Part shown: positions 2,886-44,621 of the stretch, piece after piece
Layout of the letters: each line of letters opens with the position of its first letter
How positions within the stretch are numbered: position 1 is the stretch's first letter
Origin: an uncultured Staphylococcaceae bacterium
GTDB lineage: Bacteria > Bacillota_I > Bacilli_A > RFN20 > CAG-826
Direction of reading: 5' to 3'
NCBI GenBank assembly: GCA_964410505.1
Contig: CAYPGR010000004.1
Span: 20,576 to 84,575 of the forward strand
Length of the DNA: 64,000 nt
Program-made: the position numbers and the translations under genes
The notes under the pieces: generated by a model
Seen by the model: the letters and a program-made list of their open reading frames with translations, nothing else
Database searches by the model: none
What the model was told of the DNA's origin: nothing

Positions 2886-2918
2886 TCTTTATAGGCGCTC
2901 TGAAAAGGGGGCCTTTTT

Positions 2919-3592: not shown

Positions 3593-3607
3593 AAATGGTT
3601 GATAAGT

Positions 3608-3928: not shown

Positions 3929-4243
3929 ATGGCACGGAAAGAACAAATGCAAACCCGAGTTGATTATTGGCGTGATTATCGGCAAACGATAAAAACGAGT
4001 TTTGCCCGTTCCCAAAAGCCAGAAAAAAAGCCTAAAGTCGTGCAAAAACCGGTCCTTGTGGAAGAAGAAAAAAAGCCTTCGGTTATGCGTGCGGAAGCTT
4101 TACTTAACGAATATGAAAAGAAGAGTGGTGTTGAAGAAGAATCAAAAAGAGAACCAAACGGGTTACTCTTTGGTCTTGCAATCGTGGTGCTTCTTTTAAT
4201 TATCGCCGGTGTAATATTCATGATTTGGAGGTATCAATTATGA
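3929..4243 (+). CDS. Hypothetical small protein, Lys/Glu-rich with C-terminal membrane anchor
   Basis: 104-aa ORF with a C-terminal TM (LLFGLAIVVLLLIIAGVIFMIW). It occupies the position of small ypf genes upstream of cmk in Bacillus. Confidence 0.4.
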   Translation: MARKEQMQTRVDYWRDYRQTIKTSFARSQKPEKKPKVVQKPVLVEEEKKPSVMRAEALLNEYEKKSGVEEESKREPNGLLFGLAIVVLLLIIAGVIFMIWRYQL

Positions 4244-4908
4244 AAAATATAGCCATTGCCATCGATGGTCCTGCCGCAGCAGGAAAATCGACTATTGCCA
4301 AAAAAGTAGCCGCTCATTTTAATTTTGTTTATATCGATACGGGAGCGATGTATCGGGCCTTTACGTGGTATGTTTTAGAAAAAGGACTCGATCCTAAAGA
4401 TGAAAATCTCGCAAATTCAGTCATCTCAGAAGTGCACATTCGCCTTTCAAGTGATGGCAAAGTTTTTGTTAATGGGATGGATGTTTCTAAAGCCATTCGC
4501 GAACCACGGGTATCAGGTAATGTTAGTTACATTGCTTCTTATCCAAAGGTCCGCATTTTCTTAACTGAACAACAACGAGAACTTGCGAAAGAGGTCAGTG
4601 TGGTGATGGATGGCCGTGATATCGGCACCTTCGTTTTACCGCATGCGGATGTCAAAATATTTCAAACCGCTTCAGTCGCTATCCGGGCGAAGCGTCGCTT
4701 TTTGGAAAATGAACAAAAAGGAATTAAAACGAGCCTTGAAGAAATCGAAAAAGAACTTGCTATGCGGGATCATATTGATTCGACGCGGGCGATGGCCCCT
4801 CTTCGTCAAGCAGAAGATGCCATTATTTTAGATACCGATTATCTATCGATTGATGAGGTTGTTGATGTCATCATCAAAATTGTAAATAACAAGATTGGAG
4901 TCAGATAA
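4240..4908 (+). CDS. cmk: Cytidylate kinase
   Basis: P-loop IAIDGPAAAGKST. GGAGG lies 8 nt upstream of the ATG at 4240. Full-length Cmk. Confidence 0.9.
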   Translation: MKNIAIAIDGPAAAGKSTIAKKVAAHFNFVYIDTGAMYRAFTWYVLEKGLDPKDENLANSVISEVHIRLSSDGKVFVNGMDVSKAIREPRVSGNVSYIASYPKVRIFLTEQQRELAKEVSVVMDGRDIGTFVLPHADVKIFQTASVAIRAKRRFLENEQKGIKTSLEEIEKELAMRDHIDSTRAMAPLRQAEDAIILDTDYLSIDEVVDVIIKIVNNKIGVR

Positions 4909-6215
4909 TGTCATTACCTGTCGTTGCCATTGTTGGCACACCAAACGTGGGTAAATCCACCATATTTAATCGGATTATCGGGGAACGTCGGTCGATCATC
5001 CATGATGAACGCGGGGTGACACGCGACCGAATTTATGCCGTTGGCGAATGGTTAACCCGTAAATTTAACTTAATTGACACTGGAGGAATAGAACTTGTAA
5101 AAAGTGCTTTCCAACAACAAATACGTGCCCAAGTTGAAATTGCAATTGAAGAAGCGGATGTCATTATTTATATTGGCGATGGCCCATTAGGAGTTACGTC
5201 CGATGATCGGGAAATTGCAAATCTTTTATATCGCGCAAATAAGCCAGTCGTTGTTGCCGTCAATAAAATTGATGGAGCTGAACACCATTACTTAATTCAA
5301 GATTTCTATGCCCTTGGCCTTGGTGAACCAATTGCCATAAGTGGGGCGCATGGGATTGGGATTGGTGATTTACTCGATGAAGTCATTAGAGTTCTACCAG
5401 AACAAACCGATGATTATCACGAAGATGTGACATCTTTTGCGATAATTGGGCAGCCTAATGTTGGCAAGTCAAGTTTAGTCAACGCGATCTTAAATCGCGA
5501 ACGCGTAATTGTGACGAATATTGAGGGCACGACCCGTGATTCGATTGACACACCATTTACACGTAACGGCAAAGACTATGTCGTGATTGACACGGCAGGC
5601 CTAAAAAAGCGTGGGAAGATTTATGAAAGTGTTGATAAATATGCTGCTTTGCGCGCATTTAGTGCGATTTCAAAGGCGGATATTATATTATTCGTTATTG
5701 ATGCGGTTGCTGGGATTAGAGAGCAAGACAAGCATGTGGTTGGCTACGCCATTGAAGAGAGTAAAGCGATTATCATTGTCGTTAATAAATGGGATGCAAT
5801 TGAGAAAAATGATAAAACGATGAATGAATTCACCGATAAGATTCGCAAGGAGTTCAAGTTTCTCGATTATGCGCCGGTTGTCTATGTATCCGCTTTAACA
5901 AAGTTACGCATCGACCAAATTTTTACGCAAATTGATTTTGTGAGTGATGCCTATCGGCGCCGCGTTGAAACAAACTTACTCAATGAAGTGATTCATCGCG
6001 CCCAACTTTATAACGATCCCCCTGTTTTTAATGGGGGCCGCGTAAAAATTTACTACGCTAACCAAGTGAGTATTAAACCGCCTACCTTTGTCTTTTTTGT
6101 TAATAGTCCACAATATGTTCACTTTTCATATCAACGATATTTAGAAAATCAAATTAGAGAAGCGTTTTCCTTTGAAGGAACGCCACTAAAATTTATCTTC
6201 AGGGAGCGTAAATAA
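4908..6215 (+). CDS. der: GTPase Der (EngA), tandem GTP-binding domains
   Basis: Two G domains (GTPNVGKST... and GQPNVGKSS...) plus a KH-like C-terminus, 435 aa. Confidence 0.9.
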   Translation: MSLPVVAIVGTPNVGKSTIFNRIIGERRSIIHDERGVTRDRIYAVGEWLTRKFNLIDTGGIELVKSAFQQQIRAQVEIAIEEADVIIYIGDGPLGVTSDDREIANLLYRANKPVVVAVNKIDGAEHHYLIQDFYALGLGEPIAISGAHGIGIGDLLDEVIRVLPEQTDDYHEDVTSFAIIGQPNVGKSSLVNAILNRERVIVTNIEGTTRDSIDTPFTRNGKDYVVIDTAGLKKRGKIYESVDKYAALRAFSAISKADIILFVIDAVAGIREQDKHVVGYAIEESKAIIIVVNKWDAIEKNDKTMNEFTDKIRKEFKFLDYAPVVYVSALTKLRIDQIFTQIDFVSDAYRRRVETNLLNEVIHRAQLYNDPPVFNGGRVKIYYANQVSIKPPTFVFFVNSPQYVHFSYQRYLENQIREAFSFEGTPLKFIFRERK

Positions 6216-6216
6216 T

Positions 6217-7221
6217 ATGAATGTTACGATTTTCGGGACGGGAACTTGGGGAACCGCCTTAGCCCAAGTGTTAAGCGATAATGGCCATACCCCTTTACTT
6301 TACGGGATTGAACAGTCGCAAGTAGATGATATCAATCTCAATCACCGCAATACTTTCTTTTTTGGTGATGAAGTTGTCCTCCACCAAAGTGTTCAAGCGA
6401 CCACCGATCTTGACCATGCGATGGCCCATAGCAATATTTACCTCTTAAGTGTGCCTTCTTTTGTGATGCGCGGGCTACTTGATCAAATTAGCCAAAAGCT
6501 TAATAAAAAAGTTCTCTTTATTAATACCGCTAAAGGATTTGATATCGAAAAAGAAGAACGTTTAAGCGATCTCATTCGGGAAGAAATCCAGCCATCGTTT
6601 TTACGTGGTGTGGTGTCCCTGATCGGTCCAAGTCATGCCGAGGAAGTGGTCATTCGGCTCCTTACCGTGGTGACCGCAACGAGCCAGGAATTTGATAATG
6701 CAGTACTTGTCCAAGAACTATTTTCTAATGAATATTTCCGGGTTTATACCCAAACTGATGAAATTGGTGCTGAACTTGGGGTGGCCTATAAAAATGCGAT
6801 TGCCATCGCTAGTGGTGTCCTTGCGGGTCTCGGGTATGGAGATAATGCACGGGCCGCACTTATTACACGAGGCCTCGCAGAAATGGTCCGCTTTGGTCTC
6901 CATTATGGCGCTAAACTTGAAACTTACTTGGGGCTCACTGGCTTAGGTGATTTAATTGTCACGTGTAACTCCGTCCATTCTCGGAACTTTCAAGCGGGCT
7001 TTGAAATTGGCAAGGCTAATAACGCTAAAATCTTTTTGGAAACGAACAAGAAGACCGTTGAAGGTATTCGTACCGCCAAAATTATCCACCAACTTTCATT
7101 AAAGAATGGGCTTGAACTTCCGATTGTGAATGGTATCTATAAAGTTCTCTATGAAAACGCTTTACCAAGCGAAATTGTTAAAATGTTAATGTTAAGACCA
7201 CTTCGAAGCGAGGAAAATTAA
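6217..7221 (+). CDS. gpsA: NAD(P)H-dependent glycerol-3-phosphate dehydrogenase
   Basis: N-terminal Rossmann GTGTWGTALA and GpsA-like body, 334 aa. der-gpsA synteny as in Bacillus. Confidence 0.9.
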   Translation: MNVTIFGTGTWGTALAQVLSDNGHTPLLYGIEQSQVDDINLNHRNTFFFGDEVVLHQSVQATTDLDHAMAHSNIYLLSVPSFVMRGLLDQISQKLNKKVLFINTAKGFDIEKEERLSDLIREEIQPSFLRGVVSLIGPSHAEEVVIRLLTVVTATSQEFDNAVLVQELFSNEYFRVYTQTDEIGAELGVAYKNAIAIASGVLAGLGYGDNARAALITRGLAEMVRFGLHYGAKLETYLGLTGLGDLIVTCNSVHSRNFQAGFEIGKANNAKIFLETNKKTVEGIRTAKIIHQLSLKNGLELPIVNGIYKVLYENALPSEIVKMLMLRPLRSEEN

Positions 7222-7282
7222 TTAGTTCTTGCGAATTATCCGAAGATATGATAATTTGTAATTATTAAAGGAGTTGAGAATT

Positions 7283-7558
7283 ATGAATAAAGCAGAATTG
7301 ATTAGCGTTATTGCCGACGAACTTTTATTGACAAAGCGATCGGTGGAAGAAATCATTGGTTTATTTTGTGAAACTGTCGTCGCGACCCTAGAAAAAGGCG
7401 AAGAAGTTAAATTAACTGGATTCGGCACCTTTGAAATTAGAAAACGTAAAGAACGTCGCGGTGTAAGTCCACAAACTGGAGATGAAATTGTCATTCCAGC
7501 GGGCCGTACGATTGTTTTCAAACCATCAAAATTACTCAAAGAAAAAGTCCAAGGCTAA
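7283..7558 (+). CDS. hup: DNA-binding protein HU
   Basis: MNKAELI...GFGTFEIRKRKERRGVSPQTGDEIVIPAGR... with HU arm motifs. AAGGAG RBS. Confidence 0.9.
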   Translation: MNKAELISVIADELLLTKRSVEEIIGLFCETVVATLEKGEEVKLTGFGTFEIRKRKERRGVSPQTGDEIVIPAGRTIVFKPSKLLKEKVQG

Positions 7559-7582
7559 TTAAGTATTGCACTTGGCTTTCAT

Positions 7583-8251
7583 ATGTCGAACCCTCATTCA
7601 AAGCTTTTTGAAGAAATAGCAACCGTTTTTAATAAGCACGGCTTTAAACTCTACATGGTTGGAGGAACAAGCCGTGATTTTCTTTTGGGCGAAGAAATTG
7701 ATGATTACGATTTTGCCACGGACGCGACACCCGATGATATGCGGGCCTTTTTACCGAAGGCTAATTATCGATTTAGCATGTTTGGAACGATAACTTTCAA
7801 AATCCACGGACAAAAGGTGGAAGTGACCACACTTCGTCAAGAAGGTGAATATCGTGATTTACGGCACCCAAGTGCGATTACATTTGTACGTGAACCCGAG
7901 AAAGATTATGTACGACGTGATTTCACCGTTAATGCCCTTTATATTGATGAAAATTATCGGGTACTTGATTTTTGTCAAGGGCTTGATGATTTAAAAAAAC
8001 GCATTTTACGAATGATTGGTGATCCCCAAGTTCGTTTTAAAGAGGATCCGTTACGGATGTATCGGGCTCTTCGTTTTATTGTTAGATTCGGCTTCAAATT
8101 CGATTTAATACTCAATAATGCAATGACTGAAAATGCCGAATTATCTACAAATTTAAATCCAGATAAAATTGCGGGTGAACGAAGAAAAGTGCACCCTGAG
8201 CACCTCGCTAATTATGATGCTTTGTGTCGTTACTATAAGCTTTCTCTATAG
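7583..8251 (+). CDS. CCA-adding/poly(A) polymerase-family nucleotidyltransferase, head-neck only (222 aa); the tRNA-binding body/tail domains are absent
   Basis: Pol-beta NTase head motifs GGTSRDFLLG and DYDFATDA, then neck motif RRDFTVNALY. The ORF stops 55 nt before glmS with no room for a C-terminal half. Confidence 0.6.
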   Translation: MSNPHSKLFEEIATVFNKHGFKLYMVGGTSRDFLLGEEIDDYDFATDATPDDMRAFLPKANYRFSMFGTITFKIHGQKVEVTTLRQEGEYRDLRHPSAITFVREPEKDYVRRDFTVNALYIDENYRVLDFCQGLDDLKKRILRMIGDPQVRFKEDPLRMYRALRFIVRFGFKFDLILNNAMTENAELSTNLNPDKIAGERRKVHPEHLANYDALCRYYKLSL

Positions 8252-8305
8252 TCGAGGGAGTGAAGTCTTTCATTTGTAGTAAAATATATAACAAGAGGTA
8301 CTTTT

Positions 8306-10093
8306 ATGAGTGGATTTATTGGTCGTGTCAGTGAAAATAGTATTAAAAATCATATATTAAAAGCTTTAAAGGTTTTACAATTCAAAGATGATGATTCGAC
8401 AGGGGTCTTATTATGTGGCCCCAAAAAATGTGAAATCTATAAAACGGTTGGTCAACTTAAAGATCTCCTCCCGCTTATTCCAGAGGAAGATGATGGTTGT
8501 ATTGGAATAGGGCATACCCGGTGGTCCACCTACACGAAACAAACTTTGAATAATGTTTATCCGATTCACTCCCAAAATAAACAGCTCTCGCTTGTCGTCC
8601 ATGGATTAGTCGATAATATCTTAAATATCAAACGTAAATTGGTCAAAAAAGGTTATGTCTTCACGAGTAACTCGGCAGTCGAAGTAGTTGCGAACCTCAT
8701 TGAAGACTCAAGTGGCCAGGGTATTACGAATTTAGAGGCCCTCGGAAAAGCCGTTAACTTATTATCTGGGAGTTACGCGATTGTGGCAGTTTTTAAAGAC
8801 GATCATGAACGTCTTTTCTTTGCGAAAAACGCGAGTCCGCTTATTATCGGTAAAAATGATCAAGCAATGGCGATAACGACTGATTTCCCCGCTATTGCAG
8901 GGGATGCGCATAGTTATTACTATCCGCAGGACGGTGAAATCGGTTATATTACGAAAGATGAACTCTTTGTTTTTGATAACACCTTGAAACCGCAAGCGTT
9001 TACTTTCTCCGAAACATCGGCTTCTGAAGAATCACTTGAACTCGGTGATTACCCACACTATATGTTGAAAGAAATTGAAGAAGCCCCACGGGTCATTCGC
9101 CGCTTAATTAATCAATATTTTGACGGCAGTAAATATCGGTTTGATGACCGGCTCATTGAACGGATTAATCATGCCGATAACATTGTCTTTATTGCCGCGG
9201 GTACAAGCTACAATTCCGCTTTGGTCGGACAACGTTACTTGCGTAACTTCAATAAAAAAGTTGATGTTTTTATTGCCAGTGAATGGATTTATTACCCCTA
9301 TCAAACTGGGACCAATCCGCTTTATGTCTTAATTTCACAATCGGGTGAAACCTCCGATATCTTAAAATGCCTAAAAGTAATTGAAACTTATGGTGGGGAT
9401 GTCCTGGCGATTACAAACACTGAAGTATCGACTTTATATCGGCAGGCAGATTACCGCTTGTTGCTCCATGCCGGTACCGAAATTAGTGTCGCGAGCACGA
9501 AAGCATATATCGCCCAAATTACTTTGCTATCACTTCTTTATGCGCGGCTTGTGAATAAAATAACAACTATTGCGGCGCTTGAATTAGTAATTACGGCGAT
9601 TGAAGCCATTATTAGTCAAAGAGATGAAATTAAAAGGATTGCTAAGGACATTGCAGGTTCTAAAGATGTCTTTTTCCTTGGTCGTGGATTTGATTATGAT
9701 CTCGCAATTGAAGCCCAATTAAAACTTAAAGAAACTTCATACATTCACTCGGAAGCATATGCGGGCGGAGAAATCTTACACGGTCCGATTGCGCTCATTG
9801 AAAAAGAAACGCCGGTTGTGGTATTTGTAAGTGATGAAGCAACGGTGATTGCGATGCGTGAAGTCATTGAAGAATTAAAGAAACGGACCGATAAAATCAT
9901 TATTTGTTCGGCAGCGCCATTTAATTTACCTACTGATCGTTTCTCCATCGAAAAACCAGTTCGCGGTTATCACAGTCCGATTGTCTTTGCGGTATTTGCC
10001 CAATATTTAGCCTACTATACCGCCGTCTCTTTAAATCGGGATGTTGATCGCCCACGGAACTTAGCGAAGGCAGTGAAAGACCGCGATGTTTAA
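8306..10093 (+). CDS. glmS: Glutamine--fructose-6-phosphate aminotransferase homologue with a non-canonical N-terminus (MSGFIG, not MCGIVG)
   Basis: 595 aa. The C-terminal tandem SIS domains are canonical (LISQSGETSD, C-terminal ...DVDRPRNLAKAV). The N-terminal Ntn-glutaminase domain is recognisable but has Ser at position 2. AGAGG RBS. Confidence 0.8.
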   Translation: MSGFIGRVSENSIKNHILKALKVLQFKDDDSTGVLLCGPKKCEIYKTVGQLKDLLPLIPEEDDGCIGIGHTRWSTYTKQTLNNVYPIHSQNKQLSLVVHGLVDNILNIKRKLVKKGYVFTSNSAVEVVANLIEDSSGQGITNLEALGKAVNLLSGSYAIVAVFKDDHERLFFAKNASPLIIGKNDQAMAITTDFPAIAGDAHSYYYPQDGEIGYITKDELFVFDNTLKPQAFTFSETSASEESLELGDYPHYMLKEIEEAPRVIRRLINQYFDGSKYRFDDRLIERINHADNIVFIAAGTSYNSALVGQRYLRNFNKKVDVFIASEWIYYPYQTGTNPLYVLISQSGETSDILKCLKVIETYGGDVLAITNTEVSTLYRQADYRLLLHAGTEISVASTKAYIAQITLLSLLYARLVNKITTIAALELVITAIEAIISQRDEIKRIAKDIAGSKDVFFLGRGFDYDLAIEAQLKLKETSYIHSEAYAGGEILHGPIALIEKETPVVVFVSDEATVIAMREVIEELKKRTDKIIICSAAPFNLPTDRFSIEKPVRGYHSPIVFAVFAQYLAYYTAVSLNRDVDRPRNLAKAVKDRDV

Positions 10094-10727
10094 TAAGGCA
10101 TTAGATTTTCGTTTTATGCTCTTTGAATACTATAAAGAGCTTCGGATGAGTGAAACTGAACTCGTCGTGCTTTTGTTCATTGAGCATTTGCAACAAAAAG
10201 ACACTGATTTTGTCACCCCCGATCTCATCAATTTACAATCAAATATTGACATTCGTCTAATTGATGAGACGATGGTCAAACTTGTCAGTAAAGGCTTTAT
10301 TGAATTTAGTAATCGACACGGGAAAATGGTGACTTCTTTAAACCCATTACGAAAAAAATTGCAAACCCTTTTTGCGCTTGATTATGAGCAAGAAAAAGAG
10401 AATGCGACCGTTGATTTTTCAAATCAAACCGAAGAAATCTATGCCCTCATCCAAAATGGATTTGGTCGCTCTTTATCCCCCGTTGAACTGCAAACCATTA
10501 ATCAATGGTTTTCCTATGGTTATTCAGTTGCAATGATTAAAGAAGCTTATGAAGAAAGTCTAAAAAAGAAACGTTTTAATATTCGGGCCATTGATAAGGC
10601 ACTTCTTAAACTTGCGACCGCTGTTGATTATGCTGTTGAAGGTAAAAGCGCCCAGGATCCAAGTTATCGTAAAGACATCAAACAAACGTTAGATGAAGTA
10701 AATAAAAAGATTAAAGATGACGAATAA
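10086..10727 (+). CDS. dnaD: DnaD-domain replication initiation/membrane attachment protein
   Basis: 213 aa with the C-terminal DnaD/DnaB domain-like region (...LQTINQWFSYGYSVAMIKEAYEESL...). The dnaD-nth adjacency is conserved in Firmicutes. Confidence 0.55.
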   Translation: MFNKALDFRFMLFEYYKELRMSETELVVLLFIEHLQQKDTDFVTPDLINLQSNIDIRLIDETMVKLVSKGFIEFSNRHGKMVTSLNPLRKKLQTLFALDYEQEKENATVDFSNQTEEIYALIQNGFGRSLSPVELQTINQWFSYGYSVAMIKEAYEESLKKKRFNIRAIDKALLKLATAVDYAVEGKSAQDPSYRKDIKQTLDEVNKKIKDDE

Positions 10728-11352
10728 GAATAGAGATAAGATCCTCGCCTTCTTTGACGAGGCTTACCCGGATGTTCAGGGTGAATTAACCTACCAAAAA
10801 GATTATGAATTGCTCATTGCGGTCGTTTTAAGTGCCCAATCTACCGATAAGTCCGTCAATCAAGTCACGACGAAGTTATTTGGTGATTATCCGACTTTTG
10901 ACGCACTCAAAACACTAAAAGAAACCGATTATGCCGTGTATTTTAAAACTCTTGGCCTTTATCGGAATAAGGCCAAACACATTTATCAACTTGTCAATAT
11001 GCTCGATAAAGACTATCAAGGACGCGTTCCTCAAGATAAGGAATCCTTAATGGCCCTTCCTGGGGTTGGTATTAAAACCGCGAATGTGGTGCGCGGGGAA
11101 CTATTTAAAATTCCCGAAATTGCCGTTGATACCCATGTTGCTCGGGTTTCTAAACGATTAGGGTTTGCTACACTTGATGATCAGGTAAATGTCATTGAAA
11201 GCAAACTTCAAACACTTATCCCTCAGAAACGATGGATTAAAACGCACCATCAAATGATTCACTTTGGTCGCTATTTTTGCAAAGCCAAAAAACCGCGTTG
11301 CAAAGAATGCCCGCTCATTGATCTTTGTCTTGAGAAAAAGAAAAATTTATAA
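10717..11352 (+). CDS. nth: Endonuclease III (DNA-(apurinic/apyrimidinic site) lyase)
   Basis: HhH-GPD motif LPGVGIKTANVV and the C-terminal 4Fe-4S cysteines CKAKKPRCKECPLIDLC. Confidence 0.9.
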   Translation: MTNKNRDKILAFFDEAYPDVQGELTYQKDYELLIAVVLSAQSTDKSVNQVTTKLFGDYPTFDALKTLKETDYAVYFKTLGLYRNKAKHIYQLVNMLDKDYQGRVPQDKESLMALPGVGIKTANVVRGELFKIPEIAVDTHVARVSKRLGFATLDDQVNVIESKLQTLIPQKRWIKTHHQMIHFGRYFCKAKKPRCKECPLIDLCLEKKKNL

Positions 11353-11931
11353 CGAAAAGAGTGTTATCACGGCAGGTAAGTAGTTTAAGATTGGGTTGAT
11401 GTTATAAGGGACATGGATCCCTTTTTCTTTAATTAAAGAATACGGAATCGATTTTCGTTCTCCATTATTAGAGGCAGCAATCACAAAGGAGGCCGGTAAA
11501 ACATAGACTTCGTTTTTTAAAGCAAATTCAATAATGAAAAAGGCAATGCCACCATGTTTGATGACGTTTTCTAAATGCTTAATTTGATGGTCGGAAATAT
11601 TATTAAGCGGGAAACTTGTCTTAAGTTGGGTACTCTTTGCCTCGAAGTCGAGATATCGATTGCGATAAAGGCCATTGTAATCGGTCGTCGATTGTTTTTC
11701 AAAATAGGCATTCGTTATTTTGGCCCCCTTCGAGTAATCAATTTTTACAACGTTGATCGGGGTCGGTCGTTTTGTAATGAGGGCAATATCATGCATTAAA
11801 TAATAATCATTCGCAGCGTTAATGATCTTTTCTAGTTGCATCCCGCGGTTTCCGGGTGAAGTCGGCATACTTTTTTTCCGTGAGGTCGCAACTGACTTCG
11901 CGGTATATGGTTTAGAAGGATAATTGACCAT
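11347..11931 (-). CDS. recU: Holliday-junction resolvase RecU
   Basis: 194 aa with RecU-like sequence (...GMQLEKIINAANDYYL...YLDFEAKSTQ...). Confidence 0.85.
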   Translation of the reverse strand: MVNYPSKPYTAKSVATSRKKSMPTSPGNRGMQLEKIINAANDYYLMHDIALITKRPTPINVVKIDYSKGAKITNAYFEKQSTTDYNGLYRNRYLDFEAKSTQLKTSFPLNNISDHQIKHLENVIKHGGIAFFIIEFALKNEVYVLPASFVIAASNNGERKSIPYSLIKEKGIHVPYNINPILNYLPAVITLFSL

Positions 11932-12656
11932 TAGACGATTTCTTCCTCAAGATACTTATAAATATCTTCTGCTGTAACCGTGCCCCCTTCTTTAATCTTT
12001 TGGAGGGCCTTTTTAATGGGGCGAGGCACATTATTGATATTGAGAAGTACGGCCGCATAGCGTTCTTTGATGATCTCGGGTTTTTTAAATAGTTCGTTAA
12101 AGAGATAACCAAGAAGTAGGGCATCATTTAAAGGATCGTGGGCTGGTTCAATCGTCGGTATTTCAAATAGCTTGCAGAGATTTGTGAGAGATAACGTATT
12201 ATTTTTGTCGTCTTTGATGTATTCACTCACGAGGGTACTTAGATCAAGATGGTTCTTGATAATGGTTGTGACAATCCCATGATTAGCTTCAGGCGTATAA
12301 AGAAGTGATTGTTTTAAAATCCGAACATCATGGCTCCCGAAAGTGACGAAACGACTTTTTGAAAAATTCGTGCCAACATACTTTTTAAGTAACGGCAAAG
12401 CTTCTTCAAAACCGATTCCTTCTTTCGCCAGGAGATCACTCGTGATGCCGGTTAATTCTTCAACGAGACGGCCAACATTATGCTTTGCCAACACATATTT
12501 TTTGAAACCAGGATAGAACTTTTTGACGGTTCCGTCCGGATTAAGCGTGGCTTTAACAGCGCCAATGGCAATGGTCTCATGGCTAAACTGGGTCCCCTCT
12601 AAATCAAGAAAAACAATTTGTTTACGGCCTCGGACTTGTTTCAGCAATTTTTTCAT
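11931..12656 (-). CDS. DEDDh-family 3'-5' exonuclease (KapD/DnaQ-like)
   Basis: Exo I IVFLDLEGTQF, Exo II FGSHDVRIL and Exo III HDPLNDALL motifs are all present. Confidence 0.6.
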   Translation of the reverse strand: MKKLLKQVRGRKQIVFLDLEGTQFSHETIAIGAVKATLNPDGTVKKFYPGFKKYVLAKHNVGRLVEELTGITSDLLAKEGIGFEEALPLLKKYVGTNFSKSRFVTFGSHDVRILKQSLLYTPEANHGIVTTIIKNHLDLSTLVSEYIKDDKNNTLSLTNLCKLFEIPTIEPAHDPLNDALLLGYLFNELFKKPEIIKERYAAVLLNINNVPRPIKKALQKIKEGGTVTAEDIYKYLEEEIV

Positions 12657-12699
12657 ATTCTAAATTATACCATAACCATATTTATCATGCTTTGCTTTA

Positions 12700-12728
12700 T
12701 TGCCTTTACCCCCTTTTACATATATAAT
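12700..12728 (+). promoter_or_regulatory. Sigma-A-type promoter of gpsB
   Basis: TTGCCT-17 nt-TATAAT (within TATATAAT) sits 20 nt upstream of the gpsB ATG region. Confidence 0.4.
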
Positions 12729-12746
12729 ATGTATGCGAGGTTACAC

Positions 12747-13097
12747 ATGGCGGAAAAAATACGACTGGATGCTGAAAAAATTCTTAAGAAAAAGTTCAAA
12801 GCAAAAAGTGGCGGTTATGATGCTTTAGAAGTGGATGAATATCTTGATTTAGTGCGCGAAGAATACCTCGTTTTAATGGCGAAGGAAACGGAACTCAATC
12901 ACCTTCTCACTAAAGCCGATAAACTGACAGCCCGGAATGTGGATCTTGAAGCGCTTAATTTACAATTAACCCGCAAAGTTGCCGAATTAGAACGCCTGGT
13001 CGCTAAAGGTGGGACAACGATGGAAAACTTACGGAAAATTGACAAATATGAGCGACAATTATGGGCGCTCGGGGTTGACCCTGGGAAAGTTAAATAA
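12747..13097 (+). CDS. gpsB: DivIVA-domain cell-cycle protein GpsB-like
   Basis: N-terminal DivIVA motif ILKKKFKAKSGGYDALEVDEYLDLV followed by coiled coil. Start at ATG 12747; the longer ORF-track start overlaps the convergent exonuclease gene and the promoter. Confidence 0.65.
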   Translation: MAEKIRLDAEKILKKKFKAKSGGYDALEVDEYLDLVREEYLVLMAKETELNHLLTKADKLTARNVDLEALNLQLTRKVAELERLVAKGGTTMENLRKIDKYERQLWALGVDPGKVK

Positions 13098-13103
13098 TCA
13101 ATA

Positions 13104-13448
13104 CATTCGATCTGGATGATTGCTGGTACTTCGGTATTAGAGGAAAGTCCATGCTCGCACTTGCTGAGATGCAAGTAGTGATTGCGCTAGCGGAAAAAAT
13201 AACGCTAGGTATAGAGGAGTCTATAACGGCGAAGAATGACCTAAGTCCTTGGATATGGTCGGCCTTCCTAAGGTGCCACAGTGACGAAGTTAAGGGGAAA
13301 CTCTTAAGTGGAACGTTGGTAAACCCCGCAAGCGAGAAACCTAAATTTGGTAAGGGAAATAGCAAGGAAGAAATGAATTCTGCGCTGTATGTTCACGCAT
13401 AGATAAATAATTATCCTTCGACAGAACATGGCTTATAGGATCGAATAC
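13104..13448 (+). ncRNA. rnpB: RNase P RNA, bacterial type B
   Basis: Conserved blocks AGAGGAAAGTCCATGCTCGCAC, GTGCCACAGTGACGAAGT, GGTAAACCCCGCAAGCGAGAAACCTAAATTTGGTAAGGGAA and ACAGAACATGGCTTATAGGATCGAAT match Bacillus-type RNase P RNA. P1 pairs ATTCGATC with GATCGAAT. It sits next to gpsB as in B. subtilis. Confidence 0.85.
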
Positions 13449-13464
13449 TCACTAAAGGAGATTT

Positions 13465-14076
13465 ATGAATCTACCAAATAAACTAACAACGATTAGAATG
13501 GGACTTGTTGTCCTCCTCATTATTTTTTTACTTATCCCTTATGAAGCACTTGGGATGACCATGCCGATTGTTTTCGGTAATGTGAGCCTTTTATACTTTA
13601 TCGGTGCGATTGTATTTTTAGTTGCCTCTATTACGGACTATTTTGATGGCTACCTTGCCCGGAAATTTAACCTGATTACAAATTATGGTAAATTCATGGA
13701 CCCCATCGCTGATAAATTGTTAGTTAATTCACTTTTGATTATTCTAATTAGTCCGCAAATGACTGGGCAAATCGGGGTATTGCCGCTATTTGTCATCTTG
13801 ATGATTGGTCGTGATATTGTGGTTGATGGTTTTCGGCTCGTGGCGGCGAACCAAAACAAAGTTTTGGCCGCAAATATTTTTGGGAAACTTAAAACCGTTT
13901 TACAAATGGTGGCGATTACGATGTATTTATTTAATGATTTTCCGTTCTCACTTCTTTATGGCACGGCTTTCCCATATGTTAGTTTTATCATGATGGGACT
14001 TGCCACGGTGGTGTCTCTACTTTCTGGCTTTATTTACATTTTTCAAAACATGAGTGTATTAAAGGAATCAAAATGA
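13465..14076 (+). CDS. pgsA: CDP-diacylglycerol--glycerol-3-phosphate 3-phosphatidyltransferase
   Basis: CDP-alcohol phosphatidyltransferase motif DYFDGYLARKFNLITNYGKFMDPIADK in a polytopic membrane protein. Confidence 0.85.
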   Translation: MNLPNKLTTIRMGLVVLLIIFLLIPYEALGMTMPIVFGNVSLLYFIGAIVFLVASITDYFDGYLARKFNLITNYGKFMDPIADKLLVNSLLIILISPQMTGQIGVLPLFVILMIGRDIVVDGFRLVAANQNKVLAANIFGKLKTVLQMVAITMYLFNDFPFSLLYGTAFPYVSFIMMGLATVVSLLSGFIYIFQNMSVLKESK

Positions 14077-14543
14077 AGAATCATTTAATTCTAGAAAAGA
14101 TGATGGATCTCGGTTTAAAACTCGGCAGTGTTGAATCATTTACCGGTGGCCTTTTTGCATCAACTGTTGTTAATTATCCCGGGGTTTCTTCGATTTTTAA
14201 AGGAAGTGTCGTTGCTTACCAAGATGATGTTAAACATCGGGTCCTAAAAATATCGGAAACTGATTTAAAAAAATATGGCGCAGTCTCGAGCGTTGTCGCC
14301 CTTGAAATGGCGCGTAACGGCCAAAAATTACTCGATGTTGATTTTTGTATTGCGTTTACAGGCAATGCGGGTCCGACGAGTGTGGATGAACATGATGTTG
14401 GTGAAGTGTTTATCGCCCTTGCCTATCGAGAGGATGAAATCCTTGTTCATTTTAAGATTAAAGGTGATCGTCAAAAAGTGCGGACCGAAGCCGTTGAACG
14501 TGGTTTTGAGATTCTTGATCGTGTATTAGAAAATTACAAATAG
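14073..14543 (+). CDS. cinA: CinA C-terminal domain protein (NMN deamidase PncC-like)
   Basis: 156 aa (...GSVESFTGGLFAS...AFTGNAGPT...) in the pgsA-cinA-recA synteny. Confidence 0.8.
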   Translation: MKNHLILEKMMDLGLKLGSVESFTGGLFASTVVNYPGVSSIFKGSVVAYQDDVKHRVLKISETDLKKYGAVSSVVALEMARNGQKLLDVDFCIAFTGNAGPTSVDEHDVGEVFIALAYREDEILVHFKIKGDRQKVRTEAVERGFEILDRVLENYK

Positions 14544-41224: not shown

Positions 41225-41297
41225 TTAGCGGCGATGATTTCTCCGACATCATTTAAGTGGATAAATTTGATATCATTGAAGAGAAAAGAGGACAAAT

Positions 41298-42299
41298 ATG
41301 GAAATCTTTAAAGCAGGTCAAATTCATAACTTAACGTTAAGAAACAAAATTATGATGGCTCCGATGTGTATGTATGAAAGTGATGCTAGTGGTGTCGTGA
41401 AACCGTTTCATATGGCCCATTATGTAGCGCGTGGATATGGCGGGGTCGGCCTTGTTATTCAAGAAGCAACAGCGGTATTGAAAAATGGCCGCATTAGTGC
41501 GAATGATCTTGGCATCTGGGCTGATGAACACGTTGAAGGACTCAAAAACCTCGTCTCTTTCGTGCATACGTCTGGGGCAAAAATGGGGATTCAACTTGGA
41601 CATGCAGGCCGAAAATGCGGGGTCCAGCATGATCGTATAATAGCCCCAAGTGCGATGGCATTTAGTGACCGTTATGCTACCCCAGTCGCTCTTGACAAAA
41701 CGGAAATTGAACTTATTATTAAAGCCTTTGGGAATGCTGCAAGACGGGCCATCGTCGCCGGTTACGATTATATCGAAGTGCATGCCGCACATGGGTATTT
41801 GATTAATCAATTTCTCTCCCCTTTAACGAATAAAAGAACCGACGATTATGGCGGTTCATTAACCAATCGCGTCCGTTTTCTAAAAGAAATATTACTCGAA
41901 ATTCGTCAATACTGGTCTGGCCCAGTTGCAGTCCGGGTGAGTGCTGAAGAATATAGTGAAAATGGTCACCATCCGCTAGATACAGTTAAGGTATTAGAAG
42001 AAGTCCGCGATCTGATTGATATTGTTAATGTATCATCTGGGGGTGTCGTTCCAGTTGTTCCACCTGTTTACCCAGGATACCAAATTCCTTTTGCGAAAGT
42101 CATCAAGGAAGCGGGTTTTAAAGTAATAGGTGGTGGCCTCCTTGAAGGGGTGCCGATGATGAATCAAATCCTCAAAGAAAAACAATTTGATTTCATTTAT
42201 TTGGGACGGGAACTATTGCTTAATCCCTATTTTGTGATTAAAGAAGCCAAGAAAATAGATCATGAACAAGCATTAAATGCATATAAACGTGGTTTTTAG
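41298..42299 (+). CDS. namA: NADPH dehydrogenase / Old Yellow Enzyme (YqjM/NamA-like)
   Basis: MEIFKAGQIHNLTLRNKIMMAPMCMYES...HAAHGYLINQFLSP in a 333-aa protein. Confidence 0.85.
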   Translation: MEIFKAGQIHNLTLRNKIMMAPMCMYESDASGVVKPFHMAHYVARGYGGVGLVIQEATAVLKNGRISANDLGIWADEHVEGLKNLVSFVHTSGAKMGIQLGHAGRKCGVQHDRIIAPSAMAFSDRYATPVALDKTEIELIIKAFGNAARRAIVAGYDYIEVHAAHGYLINQFLSPLTNKRTDDYGGSLTNRVRFLKEILLEIRQYWSGPVAVRVSAEEYSENGHHPLDTVKVLEEVRDLIDIVNVSSGGVVPVVPPVYPGYQIPFAKVIKEAGFKVIGGGLLEGVPMMNQILKEKQFDFIYLGRELLLNPYFVIKEAKKIDHEQALNAYKRGF

Positions 42300-42348: not shown

Positions 42349-42876
42349 ATGAAAAACTCAATTTATGACCTGAGTGTCAAGCGTGTCGACGGTAGTGAAC
42401 AATCATTAAAAGCGTACGAAGGAAAAGTCTTATTGATCTTTAACTCTGCCACTAAATGCGGCTTTACGGTCCAATATGATGCGATTGAAGCCCTACACGA
42501 AAAATACCATGGTCAAGGGTTAGAAGTGCTTGATTTTCCATCCAATCAATTCATGAACCAAGCACCAGGCACAAGTGAACAAATTGCGACTTATTGTCGA
42601 GTAACCTTTAATACAAAATTTGAAACTTTTCAAAAAATTAATGTAAATGGTAAAGATCAAAGTCCGCTTTTCGCCTTTTTAAAAGCAGCGCAACCACAAG
42701 ACTTTCCCCTACGGAAACGCTCCTTTATTCAAAAACTATTCCGCAAAAAAGAAGATATCTCTTGGAACTTTACAAAATTTTTAGTGGATCGACAAGGTCA
42801 TGTTGTTAAGCGATATGCGCCCCGGATCAAGCCCGAAGATATGGAAGCCGATATTGTCACACTGTTACAGAAGTAG
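42349..42876 (+). CDS. gpx: Glutathione peroxidase-family protein
   Basis: Active-site NSATKCGFT and FPSNQF motifs. Confidence 0.85.
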   Translation: MKNSIYDLSVKRVDGSEQSLKAYEGKVLLIFNSATKCGFTVQYDAIEALHEKYHGQGLEVLDFPSNQFMNQAPGTSEQIATYCRVTFNTKFETFQKINVNGKDQSPLFAFLKAAQPQDFPLRKRSFIQKLFRKKEDISWNFTKFLVDRQGHVVKRYAPRIKPEDMEADIVTLLQK

Positions 42877-42891: not shown

Positions 42892-42922
42892 AAAAAAGCT
42901 CACGATATGTGAGCTTTTATTT
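42892..42922 (+). terminator. Rho-independent terminator after gpx
   Basis: AGCTCAC-gatatg-TGAGCT followed by TTTTATTTT. Confidence 0.6.
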
Positions 42923-42983
42923 TGTGGATGGTGCCCGGGGCCGGACTTGAACCGGCACGGTGTCGCCACCGCAGGATTTTAAG
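42920..42983 (-). repeat. Direct repeat: 64-bp perfect copy of the 3' portion (anticodon loop to CCA) of the tRNA-Leu(UAA) gene at 44176..44239; attL/attR-like
   Basis: Identical string TTTTGTGGATGGTGCCCGGGGCCGGACTTGAACCGGCACGGTGTCGCCACCGCAGGATTTTAAG occurs at both sites. The two copies diverge immediately afterwards. Confidence 0.75.
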
Positions 42984-43143
42984 ACTGTTGGTTATTCGCA
43001 ACTTCAAAAAATAGCAAACTTAACCAAACCACAAAATATATCGCATTTAAAACAATTTACAGTCTTAATTTGTAGAAGAACAAATTTCTAATGTTTGATT
43101 AAGTATGTTAAAATAAAAATACTATGTATTTGAGGAACACCAA

Positions 43144-43962
43144 ATGTTTAAAGAATTTTTGAATGATCGTGTAGATCTACCTAAACTAAAACGTTTTGCA
43201 ATTTTAGGCAACTCTAAAACCAACGACTTTGAGAGAAAATTAGATTATTTAATTAATGTTGCGGAAAAAGAAAATTGGGATCAAACCGACATTCACACTG
43301 GAAGGAAAAATTCCACCATTTTTTATTATATTGTTCATACGTTTGATCGAATTCATACTCAAAAAAAGATCTATTTTGACGATAATTATGAAAATTCCTT
43401 TTTCAACACAGGTTTGATGGACAGTCAAGGCAATGAAATTCTCGGTCACTTTACTAAATCCACCTTTCACAAGGAAGGAGATGCTTCTAGTAACTATTGG
43501 TATTTTAAAGCTTTTCTAAAGTCAAATGATAAGGACTTTGTTCGACTTTGTAAAACAAAGCCGGAACCCGCAACCTATTTTGATGACTACAACGAATTAT
43601 ATTTTGATCCAAAATTAAATATTGAAATAAATTTCGATCATATTTATGACGATAATTTCATTCGATTACCCGATTCATTAAAAACATTAGACAAGGAAAT
43701 GGCTAGAATGGTTTTTGATGGATTTCTTTCATTCACAAAAAAGAAGATTATTAGAAACAACCGTATACCGGTCCCTCAATTTTACGATAATAAAATAACC
43801 TTTTTAATCCCCGTCAAAATATTTGACAAGGATACTGTTGTAATTGCATTAGAAAAAATCAACAATAGCTATATAGCAAATACTGTTTTAACAATGGGCA
43901 TGGCTTACAACTGCGCGCGGCTAATAACAAAGCCCGAAAGCAATTGGCTGCTTATTGACTAA
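43144..43962 (+). CDS. Hypothetical protein (272 aa), orphan cargo of the tRNA-Leu islet
   Basis: GAGGA RBS 8 nt upstream of the ATG and a dedicated terminator at 44110..44148. Soluble, Asp/Asn/Phe/Tyr/Lys-rich, with no recognised catalytic motif. Confidence 0.6.
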   Translation: MFKEFLNDRVDLPKLKRFAILGNSKTNDFERKLDYLINVAEKENWDQTDIHTGRKNSTIFYYIVHTFDRIHTQKKIYFDDNYENSFFNTGLMDSQGNEILGHFTKSTFHKEGDASSNYWYFKAFLKSNDKDFVRLCKTKPEPATYFDDYNELYFDPKLNIEINFDHIYDDNFIRLPDSLKTLDKEMARMVFDGFLSFTKKKIIRNNRIPVPQFYDNKITFLIPVKIFDKDTVVIALEKINNSYIANTVLTMGMAYNCARLITKPESNWLLID

Positions 43963-44109
43963 TTATTTGTATTTTTGTTTACAATAAAAATAATATTTGA
44001 TAGTATTAATACATCATCAGTTAAACAACAATATAAGACATTAAAATAATTAAAATAATTTATACTGATGATAAAAATACATACGACTCTTACATATTAC
44101 AAACACATA

Positions 44110-44148
44110 AGGGAGCATCAAACAATTAGATGCTCTTTTTCTTTTTTT
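44110..44148 (+). terminator. Rho-independent terminator for the islet gene
   Basis: GAGCATC-aaacaatta-GATGCTC followed by TTTTTCTTTTTTT. Confidence 0.5.
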
Positions 44149-44180
44149 AAAAAAACAAGCCGTTAGGCTTGTCTTTTTTG
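44148..44180 (-). terminator. Terminator of the minus-strand tRNA operon (bidirectional hairpin)
   Basis: CAAGCC-gtta-GGCTTG flanked by an A-run and a T-run, directly 3' of tRNA-Leu. Confidence 0.5.
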
Positions 44181-44271
44181 TGGATGGTGCCCGGGGCCGG
44201 ACTTGAACCGGCACGGTGTCGCCACCGCAGGATTTTAAGTCCTGTGCGTCTACCTGTTCCGCCACCTGGGC
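44181..44271 (-). tRNA. tRNA-Leu (anticodon UAA), long variable arm, CCA encoded
   Basis: Reverse complement is GCCCAGGTGGCGGAACAGGTAGACGC...CTTAAAATC...GGTTCAAGTCCGGCCCCGGGCACCA. There is one A.C mismatch in the acceptor stem. Confidence 0.85.
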
Positions 44272-44278
44272 ATCTAAA

Positions 44279-44354
44279 TGGTCTCCCGTGTAAGACTCGA
44301 ACTTACGACCCTTTGATTAAAAGTCAAATGCTCTACCACTGAGCTAACGGGAGA
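44279..44354 (-). tRNA. tRNA-Lys (anticodon UUU)
   Basis: Reverse complement is TCTCCCGTTAGCTCAGTGGTAGAGCATTTGACTTTTAATCAAAGGGTCGTAAGTTCGAGTCTTACACGGGAGACCA. Confidence 0.85.
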
Positions 44355-44356
44355 TT

Positions 44357-44432
44357 TGGCTGGGGCACCTAGATTCGAACTAGGGAGATGACAGAGTCAA
44401 AGTCTGTTGCCTTACCGCTTGGCTATGCCCCA
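44357..44432 (-). tRNA. tRNA-Gln (anticodon UUG)
   Basis: Reverse complement is TGGGGCATAGCCAAGCGGTAAGGCAACAGACTTTGACTCTGTCATCTCCCTAGTTCGAATCTAGGTGCCCCAGCCA. Confidence 0.85.
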
Positions 44433-44439
44433 ACACGGA

Positions 44440-44523
44440 TGGTGGGGGAGGGCGGATTTGAACCACCGAACCCTAAGGAACTGATTTACAGTCAGCCGCG
44501 TTTGACCACTTCGCTACTCCCCC
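44440..44523 (-). tRNA. tRNA-Tyr (anticodon GUA), long variable arm
   Basis: Reverse complement is GGGGGAGTAGCGAAGTGGTCAAACGCGGCTGACTGTAAATCAGTTCCTTAGGGTTCGGTGGTTCAAATCCGCCCTCCCCCACCA. Confidence 0.85.
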
Positions 44524-44545
44524 AAGCAATTTTGCATAAAATAAA

Positions 44546-44621
44546 TGGTGGATGGTGAGGGGTTTGAACCCCCGACCTCCGCCGTGTAAAGGCGATGCTC
44601 TCCCAGCTGAGCTAACCATCC
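44546..44621 (-). tRNA. tRNA-Val (anticodon UAC)
   Basis: Reverse complement is GGATGGTTAGCTCAGCTGGGAGAGCATCGCCTTTACACGGCGGAGGTCGGGGGTTCAAACCCCTCACCATCCACCA. Confidence 0.8.

Follow-up and report, generated by a model that had tools for sequence, protein, structure and literature searches.

Is the short AT-rich islet that lies between an intact tRNA-Leu(UAA) gene and a second copy of the 3' part of that gene the dead remnant of an integrated element, or a unit that still moves? Scars made of tRNA fragments have been described, as have att-flanked elements without an integrase, and both are usually taken for dead remnants. Based on the architecture of the locus within the window, by which we mean the whole 64,000-nucleotide stretch analysed, and on its occurrence in related genomes, we propose that positions 42984-44175 are probably an integrative mini-element of 1.19 kb that has no integrase of its own and entered tRNA-Leu(UAA) at the anticodon loop, through site-specific recombination by an enzyme encoded elsewhere in the cell. 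The features of the locus are the following:

42894-42918, both strands: native bidirectional terminator hairpin in the chromosomal flank, outside the element (terminator scan of both strands)
42920-42983, minus strand: distal att core copy, a displaced 3' fragment of tRNA-Leu(UAA) with 9 nt of flank and 55 nt from CCA to the anticodon loop, 100% identical to 44176-44239
42984-43143, plus strand: left arm, non-coding and AT-rich (sequence reading)
43144-43962, plus strand: DUF3825 gene, 272 aa, the only protein-coding cargo
43978-44006, plus strand: sRNA promoter, TTTACA, 17 nt, TGnTAGTAT (promoter scan)
44008-44148, plus strand: candidate sRNA of ~135 nt (covariance model and pair conservation)
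44155-44172, no strand assigned: element-borne hairpin between an A-run and a T-run (terminator scan on the plus strand; minus-strand reading from the sequence)
44176-44239, minus strand: tRNA-proximal att core copy, the 3' part of the working tRNA (identical repeat, single copy in the empty-site allele)
44185-44271, minus strand: intact tRNA-Leu(UAA), the integration target (ARAGORN; Rfam tRNA, 55 bits)

A repeat search recovered one family of 64 nt, whose two copies (42920-42983 and 44176-44239) are 100% identical and lie 1,256 bp apart on the same strand, exactly as an earlier note on this DNA had placed them; the probability of a perfect 64-mer repeat arising by chance in 64 kb is negligible. 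The note had rightly recognized the repeat as the 3' part of the tRNA together with some flank, but its division into 59 and 5 nt is off by four, as ARAGORN assigns 55 nt (44185-44239) to tRNA-Leu(UAA), starting with the first base of its anticodon loop and ending with CCA, and leaves a 9-nt 3' flank, TTTTGTGGA (44176-44184). The identity of the tRNA was likewise correct, and its strand, which had been left unstated, is minus; ARAGORN places it at the end of a Val-Tyr-Gln-Lys-Leu cluster. The displaced fragment has the orientation of the intact tRNA and is located downstream of it. ARAGORN and Rfam detect no tRNA at 42920-42983, and the left copy is not a functional tRNA, which disposes of the objection that it might belong to a functional paralogue. 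The repeat block begins at the very edge of the anticodon loop, and the presumed crossover site is the anticodon stem-loop, CAGGA-TTTTAAG-TCCTG in the plus-strand reading.

We then compared the locus with its relatives, as the earlier note had recommended, and observed the empty site in three conspecific metagenome contigs (L150, L151 and L152; 97.6-98.7% nucleotide identity), in which gpx is followed by the terminator, one core and an intact tRNA-Leu. These contigs lack exactly 1,256 bp, corresponding to 42984-44239 of the window; in them and in two similar places the left alignment stops at 42983 and the right one begins at 44176, with one 64-nt core common to both. The core of the empty-site allele carries one SNP in the 9-nt flank, and it lies directly behind the terminator at 42894-42918, which serves gpx and, in this allele, the tRNA operon as well. 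The duplicated fragment is absent from all 53 related PGI-tRNA loci, contrary to what a conserved ancestral duplication would predict. The occupied structure recurs in independent assemblies, namely the window, ERZ27247346 and Logan contigs from at least three runs, including SRR8449813 and SRR21159517; ERZ2648110 is a further islet-positive sample. Together with the lack of a tRNA at the left copy, the empty sites and the non-ancestral nature of the duplication support the interpretation of the repeats as the att-site footprint of an insertion into a tRNA gene without an integrase.

The DNA between the two copies (42984-44175; 1,192 bp) has a G+C content of 29.1% versus 39.0% for the whole window, which lies below all 1,257 sliding windows of 1,192 bp taken in 50-bp steps and bears out the AT-richness remarked upon before; the DUF3825 gene itself has the lowest G+C among the 45 ORFs of at least 200 aa with an ATG start in the window. 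This gene (43144-43962) is the sole ORF of more than 75 aa in the islet. Profile searches matched its product to no recombinase family, the islet contains no integration or transfer genes, and no recombinase motif was found anywhere in the 64-kb window. The claim that an integrase is lacking thus holds, whereas the claim of only one gene does not: a second gene, an sRNA unit running from promoter to terminator, occupies ~43978-44148. The left arm contains a TGnTAAAAT extended -10 box at ~43108-43116, upstream of DUF3825, which the consensus promoter scan did not list; the TGTTAAAAT box is common to the window and contigs L059 and L149, described below. At the other end, a minus-strand reading of the hairpin at 44155-44172 suggests that it takes over from the native terminator of the tRNA operon. 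The ends of the islet are not linked by an inverted repeat, and the flanking repeat is 64 nt of tRNA, in place of the terminal inverted repeats and short target duplication that define IS elements and MITEs. An integron gene cassette was also considered and rejected, as the alignment shows that the hairpin arms after DUF3825 do not have attC boxes (R''/L''-L'/R' sites, RYYYAAC ... GTTRRRY) in the right places and that the boxes are not conserved among homologues.

The candidate sRNA is predicted to form a stem of 9-10 bp (~44013-44021 with 44062-44070) closing an AT-rich loop of ~45 nt, followed on the 3' side by a conserved linker of ~35 nt and an intrinsic terminator (44113-44119 with 44129-44135, then a T-run); the predicted transcript spans ~44011-44148. 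A covariance model matches seven DUF3825 loci with E-values from 1e-13 to 2e-4, and across six loci the -35 and -10 boxes of the promoter are conserved while the spacer varies. In the alignment 87% of cells are paired, with double changes in 12 of the 18 pairs, a level reached by none of 500 shuffles and above the 38-61% of slid controls. The candidate matches no Rfam family. A role as antisense regulator of the DUF3825 leader was rejected, since RNAduplex z-scores range from -1.8 to +1.9 in seven loci with no consistent signal. The ORF list contains no small ORF partner beside DUF3825 in the islet; the sRNA is a candidate partner of the protein, whose toxin function is putative.

DUF3825 itself shows a weak match to the RelE/ParE-like fold, in which helices are followed by an antiparallel sheet; conserved residues of the protein are R204/N205/R207, E237, Y243/N246, Y255 and R259. 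A profile search of PDB sequences and NCBIfam returned nothing for it, PADLOC gave only a weak partial match to PDC-M13A (E=0.0016), and we found no mention of it in the literature searched. Its homologues behave as typical accessory cargo of islands, prophages and plasmids. They occur at prophage ends or in moron positions, such as gp21 of Listeria phage A006 and Javan385 (41270-42001 of 42,560), as well as PV036433 (59060-59812 of 60,444), and in ~14 A006-like prophage contigs the gene lies 1.3-3.7 kb from the contig ends. One A006-like prophage contig (L112) has it beside the lysis genes, another locus (L063) in the opposite orientation inside replication genes; further homologues reside on plasmids, one of only 3.1 kb, and one adjoins an HTH-MTaX1-methylase unit. 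In L084 the homologue belongs to a 6-kb tRNA-Ala island with a broken integrase, of which only fragments are left. Among ~70 distinct DUF3825 loci, a tRNA 3'-fragment bracket was seen at L084 and the window only. The weak fold match and the phage-moron, small-plasmid and restriction-modification settings suggest a toxin-like or anti-phage module that may favour retention. DUF3825 thereby gains a concrete setting, as an autonomous module with a conserved partner sRNA on phages, plasmids and islands, possibly with a toxin-like role.

A diverged variant of the islet was found in a second species (species B; the window represents species A). Contigs L149 and L154 contain a 1,141-bp islet between 57-nt repeats at the same tRNA, and their flank is 99.5% identical to L006, the species-B reference genome, in which the site is empty; precise empty attB sites thus coexist with occupied ones in both species. 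The species-B DUF3825 gene is 76.7% identical to that of the window at the nucleotide level and 87.5% at the protein level, and both the sRNA and the core-abutting hairpin are present. The left arms, at 35% identity, are unrelated apart from the extended -10 box. The identity block ends 2 nt further than in variant A, where it ends at the edge of the anticodon loop, and in both variants the hairpin, whose stem ACAAGC/GCTTGT is conserved in L149 and L059, is separated from the repeat core by 3-9 nt and from the 3' end of the tRNA by 9-12 nt. Despite ~24% divergence of the islets, the displaced fragments are still perfect (64/64 in A and 57/57 in B), which points to recent insertion or to selection on the att site.

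In contig L059 a copy of the species-B islet (99.9% identical over 1,156 nt), with its left junction unchanged, lies at one end of a unit of 8,671 bp, and the 57-nt core lies at the other. The unit is inserted in an ORF for an IS110-family transposase between 13-nt imperfect repeats, AGGATTT[A/T]AAGTC, and its removal restores an uninterrupted 83-aa DEDD_Tnp_IS110 frame (E=9e-12). The target, TAGGA-TTTAAAG-TCTTA, is a mimic of the anticodon stem-loop, i.e. a pseudo-att site. This copy sits in another replicon. The remaining 7.47 kb of the unit begins immediately after the islet and stops directly before the core, has a G+C content of 43-53% versus 28-29% for the islet, shows no match in the plasmid collection, and encodes, ~1 kb away from the core, an integrase with a catalytic domain (Pfam E=8e-38) but no N-terminal domains. 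There is no internal att between islet and segment, so the composite was not formed by att accretion.

Based on the precise empty sites, the diverged variant at the same tRNA and the pseudo-att copy, we regard the islet as an att-flanked, integrase-less mini-element of the CIME (cis-mobilizable element) type rather than a random decay scar. Of the two options offered by the earlier note, a decayed element or a satellite mobilized in trans, the evidence favours the satellite, given that two variants ~24% diverged share the same integrase-less architecture and that a secondary pseudo-att copy exists. The attP of the element would be a copy of the tRNA from its anticodon loop through CCA, together with the 9 nt of flank. 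Crossover would occur within the 7-nt anticodon loop, such that the element-borne copy (44176-44239) completes a working tRNA, the original 3' part is pushed to the far end (42920-42983), and the incoming hairpin terminates the tRNA operon. The cargo may be viewed as a self-contained two-gene module, in which DUF3825 has a promoter to itself and the ~135-nt structured sRNA both a promoter and a terminator. With no recombinase encoded on the element, the enzyme would come from elsewhere in the cell, for instance from a prophage, ICE or IME; it was most likely a tyrosine integrase supplied in trans, presumably of the kind that targets anticodon loops.

In an excised circle, the predicted attP junction would have the core between two stretches of islet, ...GGCTTGTC-core-ACTGTTGGTT..., and the corresponding attB junction would read gpx terminator-core-TCCTGTGCG. 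Exact searches of viral contigs for 55-, 41- and 22-nt stretches of the core and for the B-type attP/attR junction gave no matches and hence no candidate helper phage, and the core-bearing prophage or integrase envisaged in the earlier note did not emerge from them; the islet DNA also has no match in the phage collection. Several candidates for circles or transfers were discarded. Two 1,252-bp Logan contigs (L004 and L005) consist of the islet plus 30 nt of repeat per side, reflecting a k=31 graph break, and the 1,238-bp contig L154 is an integrated copy. An independent transfer into L001, where the islet is 100% and the rest 93.6% identical, was likewise rejected, as the identity spans the whole left flank and the switch to species B falls inside the tRNA cluster; L001 and L149 are reciprocal products of an assembly swap or a recombinant, not evidence of mobility.

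It might be argued that the islet is an immobile scar, all that is left of a larger prophage or ICE once integrated at tRNA-Leu, with the polymorphism arising by RecA deletion between the 64-nt repeats, for which 64 nt of perfect homology are sufficient, or by homologous replacement. DUF3825 is indeed often the outermost gene of prophages (Javan385, PV036433 and the A006-like contigs), the tRNA-Ala island of L084 could represent an intermediate state of such decay, and neither a helper integrase nor a circular form was found. We nevertheless consider this scenario unlikely: independent decay would have needed identical deletion end-points twice to yield the same minimal architecture in the two diverged variants, neither of the two non-functional fragments has diverged from the tRNA (100% identity), and the near-identical copy in L059 bears the hallmark short imperfect repeats of a pseudo-att site. 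A related proposal, which we hold to be very unlikely, treats the islet as a CIME in the strict sense, left over from an 8.7-kb element of the L059 type whose integrase-bearing 7.47-kb segment is ancestral. The position of the integrase domain near the core is the usual tRNA-proximal one, and DUF3825 lies at the distal end as in a complete island. Against this stand the discordant G+C content of the segment, its exact fit between islet and core, its truncated integrase and its lack of plasmid matches; furthermore, the adjacency of hairpin and core common to the A and B islets makes insertion of the segment into an existing islet more parsimonious.

An artefact or an origin without a recombinase, be it assembly error, tandem duplication or Campbell-type homologous integration of a circle bearing a tRNA fragment, has a virtually negligible probability. 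Chimeras can be demonstrated among metagenome assemblies around this tRNA cluster, but the structure recurs in independent assemblies, both variants have the repeat boundary at the anticodon loop, and the 13 nt of similarity at the pseudo-att insertion are too little for homologous integration. Self-mobilization, with DUF3825 and the sRNA forming an unrecognized, possibly RNA-assisted recombination system that recognizes the tRNA-Leu anticodon stem-loop without a helper, would explain the mobility of an integrase-less 1.2-kb unit across two species. We find it scarcely credible, however, as phages and chromosomes carry the same DUF3825-sRNA module with no repeats around it, as the fold is closer to RelE/ParE RNases than to any recombinase, and as variants A and B have unrelated left arms. 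Much more likely than self-mobilization, and a tentative possibility, is a stable lineage of miniature integrase-parasitizing elements in which DUF3825 and the sRNA enforce retention as a novel toxin or defence module composed of protein and RNA.

Among known systems, the mini-element is at 1.1-1.2 kb about 10 times smaller than CIMEs, and resembles them in the intact att sites, both kept (64/64 in A, 57/57 in B), that flank it at the 3' end of a target gene, in the lack of integrase, excisionase and transfer genes, and in its presumed dependence on the enzyme of another element; the L059 composite is likewise comparable to composite elements moving as one unit. CIMEs of streptococci have lost integration and transfer genes and kept attL and attR (PMC5704250). 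In contrast to these, no homology was found between the islet and any ICE or IME, and its integrase-less form is conserved in two diverged variants, unlike recent decay. With prophage morons, accessory units that are transcribed independently, such as A006 gp21, it shares a unit with its own promoter and terminators, but it stands outside a prophage, alone between att sites. DUF3825 differs from RelE/ParE toxins in having no sequence-level match, a threefold larger size and no adjacent protein antitoxin, and the islet differs from type III toxin-antitoxin systems in having, instead of a repeat array upstream of the gene, one RNA unit downstream of it, for which no complementarity to the DUF3825 leader was found.

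The likeness to tRNA islands extends to an intact tDNA with a displaced direct 3' fragment, an identity block from the anticodon loop to past the 3' end, restoration of the target gene by the element, foreign composition and, by the criteria of Islander, a crossover at a recognized sublocation, the anticodon loop, which the pseudo-att repeat also covers. Islander reported the anticodon-centred 'A' type signature in 2,083 islands, and it cites Williams 2002 for anticodon-loop (type A) attP sites (PMC4383910). The islet is far smaller than typical islands, and it has no integrase gene, which Islander demands; pipelines of this type drop such elements for that reason. It nonetheless shows three signs of being live: precise presence and absence in two species, a minimal architecture kept at ~24% divergence, and a near-identical copy at a pseudo-att site. 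These point to a class of miniature elements that use the integrases of other elements, an integrase counterpart of MITEs that current methods would miss.

A repeat search of the window recovered the perfect 64-nt direct repeat reported in the earlier note, the sole one described, at 42920-42983 and 44176-44239 (spacing 1,256 bp). The features that it brackets or adjoins are:

42894-42918, native terminator of the tRNA operon, now stranded beside the left tRNA fragment
43144-43962, DUF3825 gene (272 aa; Pfam E=1e-52), the sole islet ORF longer than 75 aa
43978-44006, plus strand, promoter TTTACA-17-TGnTAGTAT of a candidate sRNA, 3' of the DUF3825 stop codon
43978-44148, plus strand, promoter-terminator unit of this candidate sRNA, with a transcript of about 135 nt and an intrinsic terminator reaching to about 44148
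44155-44172, read on the minus strand, final islet hairpin flanked by an A-run and a T-run, starting 12 nt downstream of the tRNA 3' end
44185-44271, minus strand, tRNA-Leu(UAA) (ARAGORN, with Rfam in agreement)

ARAGORN makes tRNA-Leu(UAA) the final gene of a Val-Tyr-Gln-Lys-Leu cluster downstream of the gene for glucose-6-phosphate isomerase (PGI) and, based on its placement, the right-hand repeat comprises 55 nt of tRNA, beginning with the first nucleotide of the anticodon loop and ending with the CCA, plus 9 nt of 3' flank, rather than the 59 and 5 nt first proposed. No tRNA was called at the left copy, which is thus a fragment only; it lies downstream of the intact tRNA-Leu in the same orientation, as a displaced 3' fragment would. 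The 1,192-bp islet between the copies (42984-44175) has a G+C content of 29.1% against 39.0% for the window, below every other sampled stretch of that length, which bears out its earlier description as AT-rich. Its final hairpin, in the minus-strand reading, replaces the native tRNA-operon terminator.

The host belongs to an uncultured Bacilli lineage whose closest PGI loci in the species-representative collection show 81% protein identity. DUF3825, the glutathione peroxidase gene (gpx) and the duplicated tRNA fragment were absent from all 53 related PGI-tRNA loci, which speaks against the duplication being a conserved ancestral feature. Exact look-up of the neighboring S1-domain protein recovered conspecific contigs (L150, L151 and L152, with two similar places) that are 97.6-98.7% identical to the window. 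In the three named contigs gpx directly follows PGI and the tRNA cluster, and their alignments to the window stop at 42983 and resume at 44176, leaving one 64-nt core, with a single base different within its 9-nt flank, and exactly 1,256 bp missing: the empty site for which the earlier note had suggested looking. The window and ERZ27247346 have occupied alleles, as do Logan contigs from at least three sequencing runs, including SRR8449813 and SRR21159517. At 44256 (G, in the D-loop of tRNA-Leu) and 44273-44274 (the Leu-Lys spacer) the window differs from the conspecific empty-site contigs, with which a second species, B, agrees. Only the window species, in occupied and empty alleles alike, has gpx (42349-42876) between the tRNA cluster and a flavin oxidoreductase gene. 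The gene is missing at that position in L006, the representative genome of species B, and in L010; it was gained or lost at this hotspot separately from the islet.

In species B, contig L149 carries a 1,141-bp islet at the same tRNA-Leu between 57-nt repeats (TGGTGCCC...TTTTAAGTC), with a DUF3825 gene showing 76.7% nucleotide and 87.5% amino acid identity to that of the window, the same sRNA and a homologous hairpin adjoining the core, and with a left arm unrelated to the window's. Its left flank, 99.5% identical to L006, has a flavin oxidoreductase gene (334 aa) and the native terminator but no gpx. L006 itself has an empty site, and L154, from a different sample, supplies a third integrated copy. 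L149 and contig L001 come from one sample (ERZ27247346) and are reciprocal mosaics of the two species that switch inside the conserved tRNA cluster (window 44240-44620): L001 matches the window at 100% as far as 44255 and L006 at 99.8% beyond it, and L149 matches L006 at 99.5% until the islet is reached and the window at 100% from about 44600 onward. The mosaicism is probably an assembly swap, the other reading being a real inter-species recombinant, and we do not count it as evidence of mobility. At the species-B junction of flank, fragment and islet the repeat measures only 57 nt, below the final assembly k of 141 that the contig names imply, and the junction should therefore be real.

The species-B type of islet recurs in contig L059, with 99.9% identity over 1,156 nt and the same left junction (AAGTC/AGTCATG), followed by a 7.47-kb segment (1271-8741; 43-53% G+C) and then the 57-nt core, the segment spanning exactly from the last base of the islet to the first base of the core. 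It encodes an ABC transporter, RelA/SpoT-like, MATE and MarR proteins, and an N-terminally truncated Tn916-like integrase. A C-terminal fragment in it resembles, by eye only, a large serine recombinase, and Pfam found no recombinase family there. A 13-nt imperfect repeat (AGGATTT[A/T]AAGTC) stands on either side of the complete 8,671-bp unit, whose removal in silico restores an uninterrupted 83-aa frame with an IS110 transposase N-terminal domain (E=9e-12). Both flanks are halves of one gene, which excludes an assembly chimera. The target TAGGA-TTTAAAG-TCTTA has the 5-7-5 layout of the anticodon stem-loop CAGGA-TTTTAAG-TCCTG, as expected when a tyrosine recombinase with a 7-bp overlap integrates attP at a secondary site, and this is what the unit looks like from its sequence.

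We conclude that site-specific recombination at the anticodon loop brought in the islet as an att-flanked element, in support of the att-footprint interpretation of the earlier note. Of the two histories offered there, we prefer mobilization in trans to random decay into a scar. The two variants, about 24% apart, share one minimal layout, in which 3-9 nt separate the homologous hairpin from the core and 9-12 nt separate it from the 3' end of the tRNA, both functionless tRNA fragments remain perfect copies, and the islet is polymorphic in both species with a near-identical copy at a pseudo-site. The shared layout further implies that the integrase-less form is older than the split of the variants, and makes insertion into the islet the better reading of the extra segment of L059. 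RecA-dependent deletion between the repeats would likewise yield precise empty sites, and the L059 event might have used an integrase inside the composite itself. Core searches in viral contigs and a recombinase search of the window found no helper integrase, and no circle junction was found among the short islet contigs examined. A weak point of movement in trans is that the unrelated left arms of the two variants do not fit a single arm-binding helper.

As to content, the single gene noted earlier stands as the one ORF, DUF3825; the sRNA unit, a second gene, had been overlooked, and we add it as a partner together with a possible RelE-like nature of DUF3825. The protein also matches phrog_11623, whose function is unknown, and has no NCBIfam match and only a weak partial match in PADLOC; a literature search found no paper mentioning DUF3825. 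In the predicted sRNA an AT-rich loop is closed by a stem of 9-10 bp, and a conserved unpaired stretch and the intrinsic terminator follow. In an alignment of DUF3825 loci its promoter boxes are conserved and the spacer is variable. A covariance model places it after DUF3825 in seven loci; in this small sample of 7 sequences, with the alignment fitted to the model, 87% of cells pair and 12 of 18 pairs are changed on both sides, a pairing level reached by none of 500 shuffles (slid controls, 38-61%). The homologous units lie at:

L059, 1103-1234
L133, 5112-5238
L132, 1325-1451
L134, 3312-3450
L060, 2356-2491
L063, 7396-7531

The unit, with its stem covariation, sits directly downstream of DUF3825 within a clade of at least 57% identity, and was not detected after more distant homologs (A006-like phages) or copies adjacent to SSB genes. 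No Rfam family matches it, and no complementarity to the DUF3825 leader was found.

DUF3825 recurs in other settings. Locus L084 has a 6-kb island in tRNA-Ala(GGC) (8452-14506), bracketed by two 56-nt copies of the tRNA's 3' part, with only tyrosine integrase fragments, beside the tRNA, a DUF3825 gene and a 507-aa possible FokI-like nuclease (sub-threshold Pfam cleavage-domain match, E=0.005); it looks like a decaying island with the same cargo family. At L085 (9526-12187) tRNA-Leu(UAG) is followed after 40 bp by DUF3825 and then by a gene for a large serine recombinase; 146 bp upstream of this tRNA, a 28-nt stretch of its 5' end recurs. Moron-like copies adjoin the endolysin gene of an A006-like prophage contig (L112), lie near the record ends of Streptococcus phage Javan385 and Ruminococcus/Monoglobales phages, and sit in opposite orientation inside the replication module of phage contig L063; at L133 the gene adjoins an HTH-MTaX1-methylase unit. 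It is one of very few genes of the 3,103-bp Enterobacter roggenkampii plasmid NZ_CP095175.1 (735-1469) and occurs on about 35 Campylobacter plasmids, carriage consistent with a maintenance or defense role. At L073 (1334-3133; likewise L074 and L121) a distant homolog (38% identity) lies within perfect 27-nt AT-rich direct repeats 1.77 kb apart (TATATATGATTATATTATTATATTTTA), which could delimit a further small unit or stem from duplication of a promoter. Two other genomes of Bacilli (L135 and L143, 7489-8819) have a copy with 59-61% identity at a conserved position after peptidase M16 and SSB genes, indicating that DUF3825 is not always mobile; the sRNA model finds nothing in the 540-875 bp non-coding stretch that follows. 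We treat these settings as no more than a lead that DUF3825 and its candidate partner sRNA may form a toxin-like or anti-phage module.

Among known systems, integron cassettes, insertion sequences and MITEs were each rejected as the identity of the islet. Its signature matches the anticodon-centered tRNA islands of Islander, except that the integrase gene, their defining feature (PMC4383910), is absent. Cis-mobilizable elements (CIMEs) are defined by retained att sites and the loss of integration and transfer genes (PMC5704250), and the islet falls within that definition, although it is far smaller, without visible ICE or IME ancestry and, it seems, a stable form.
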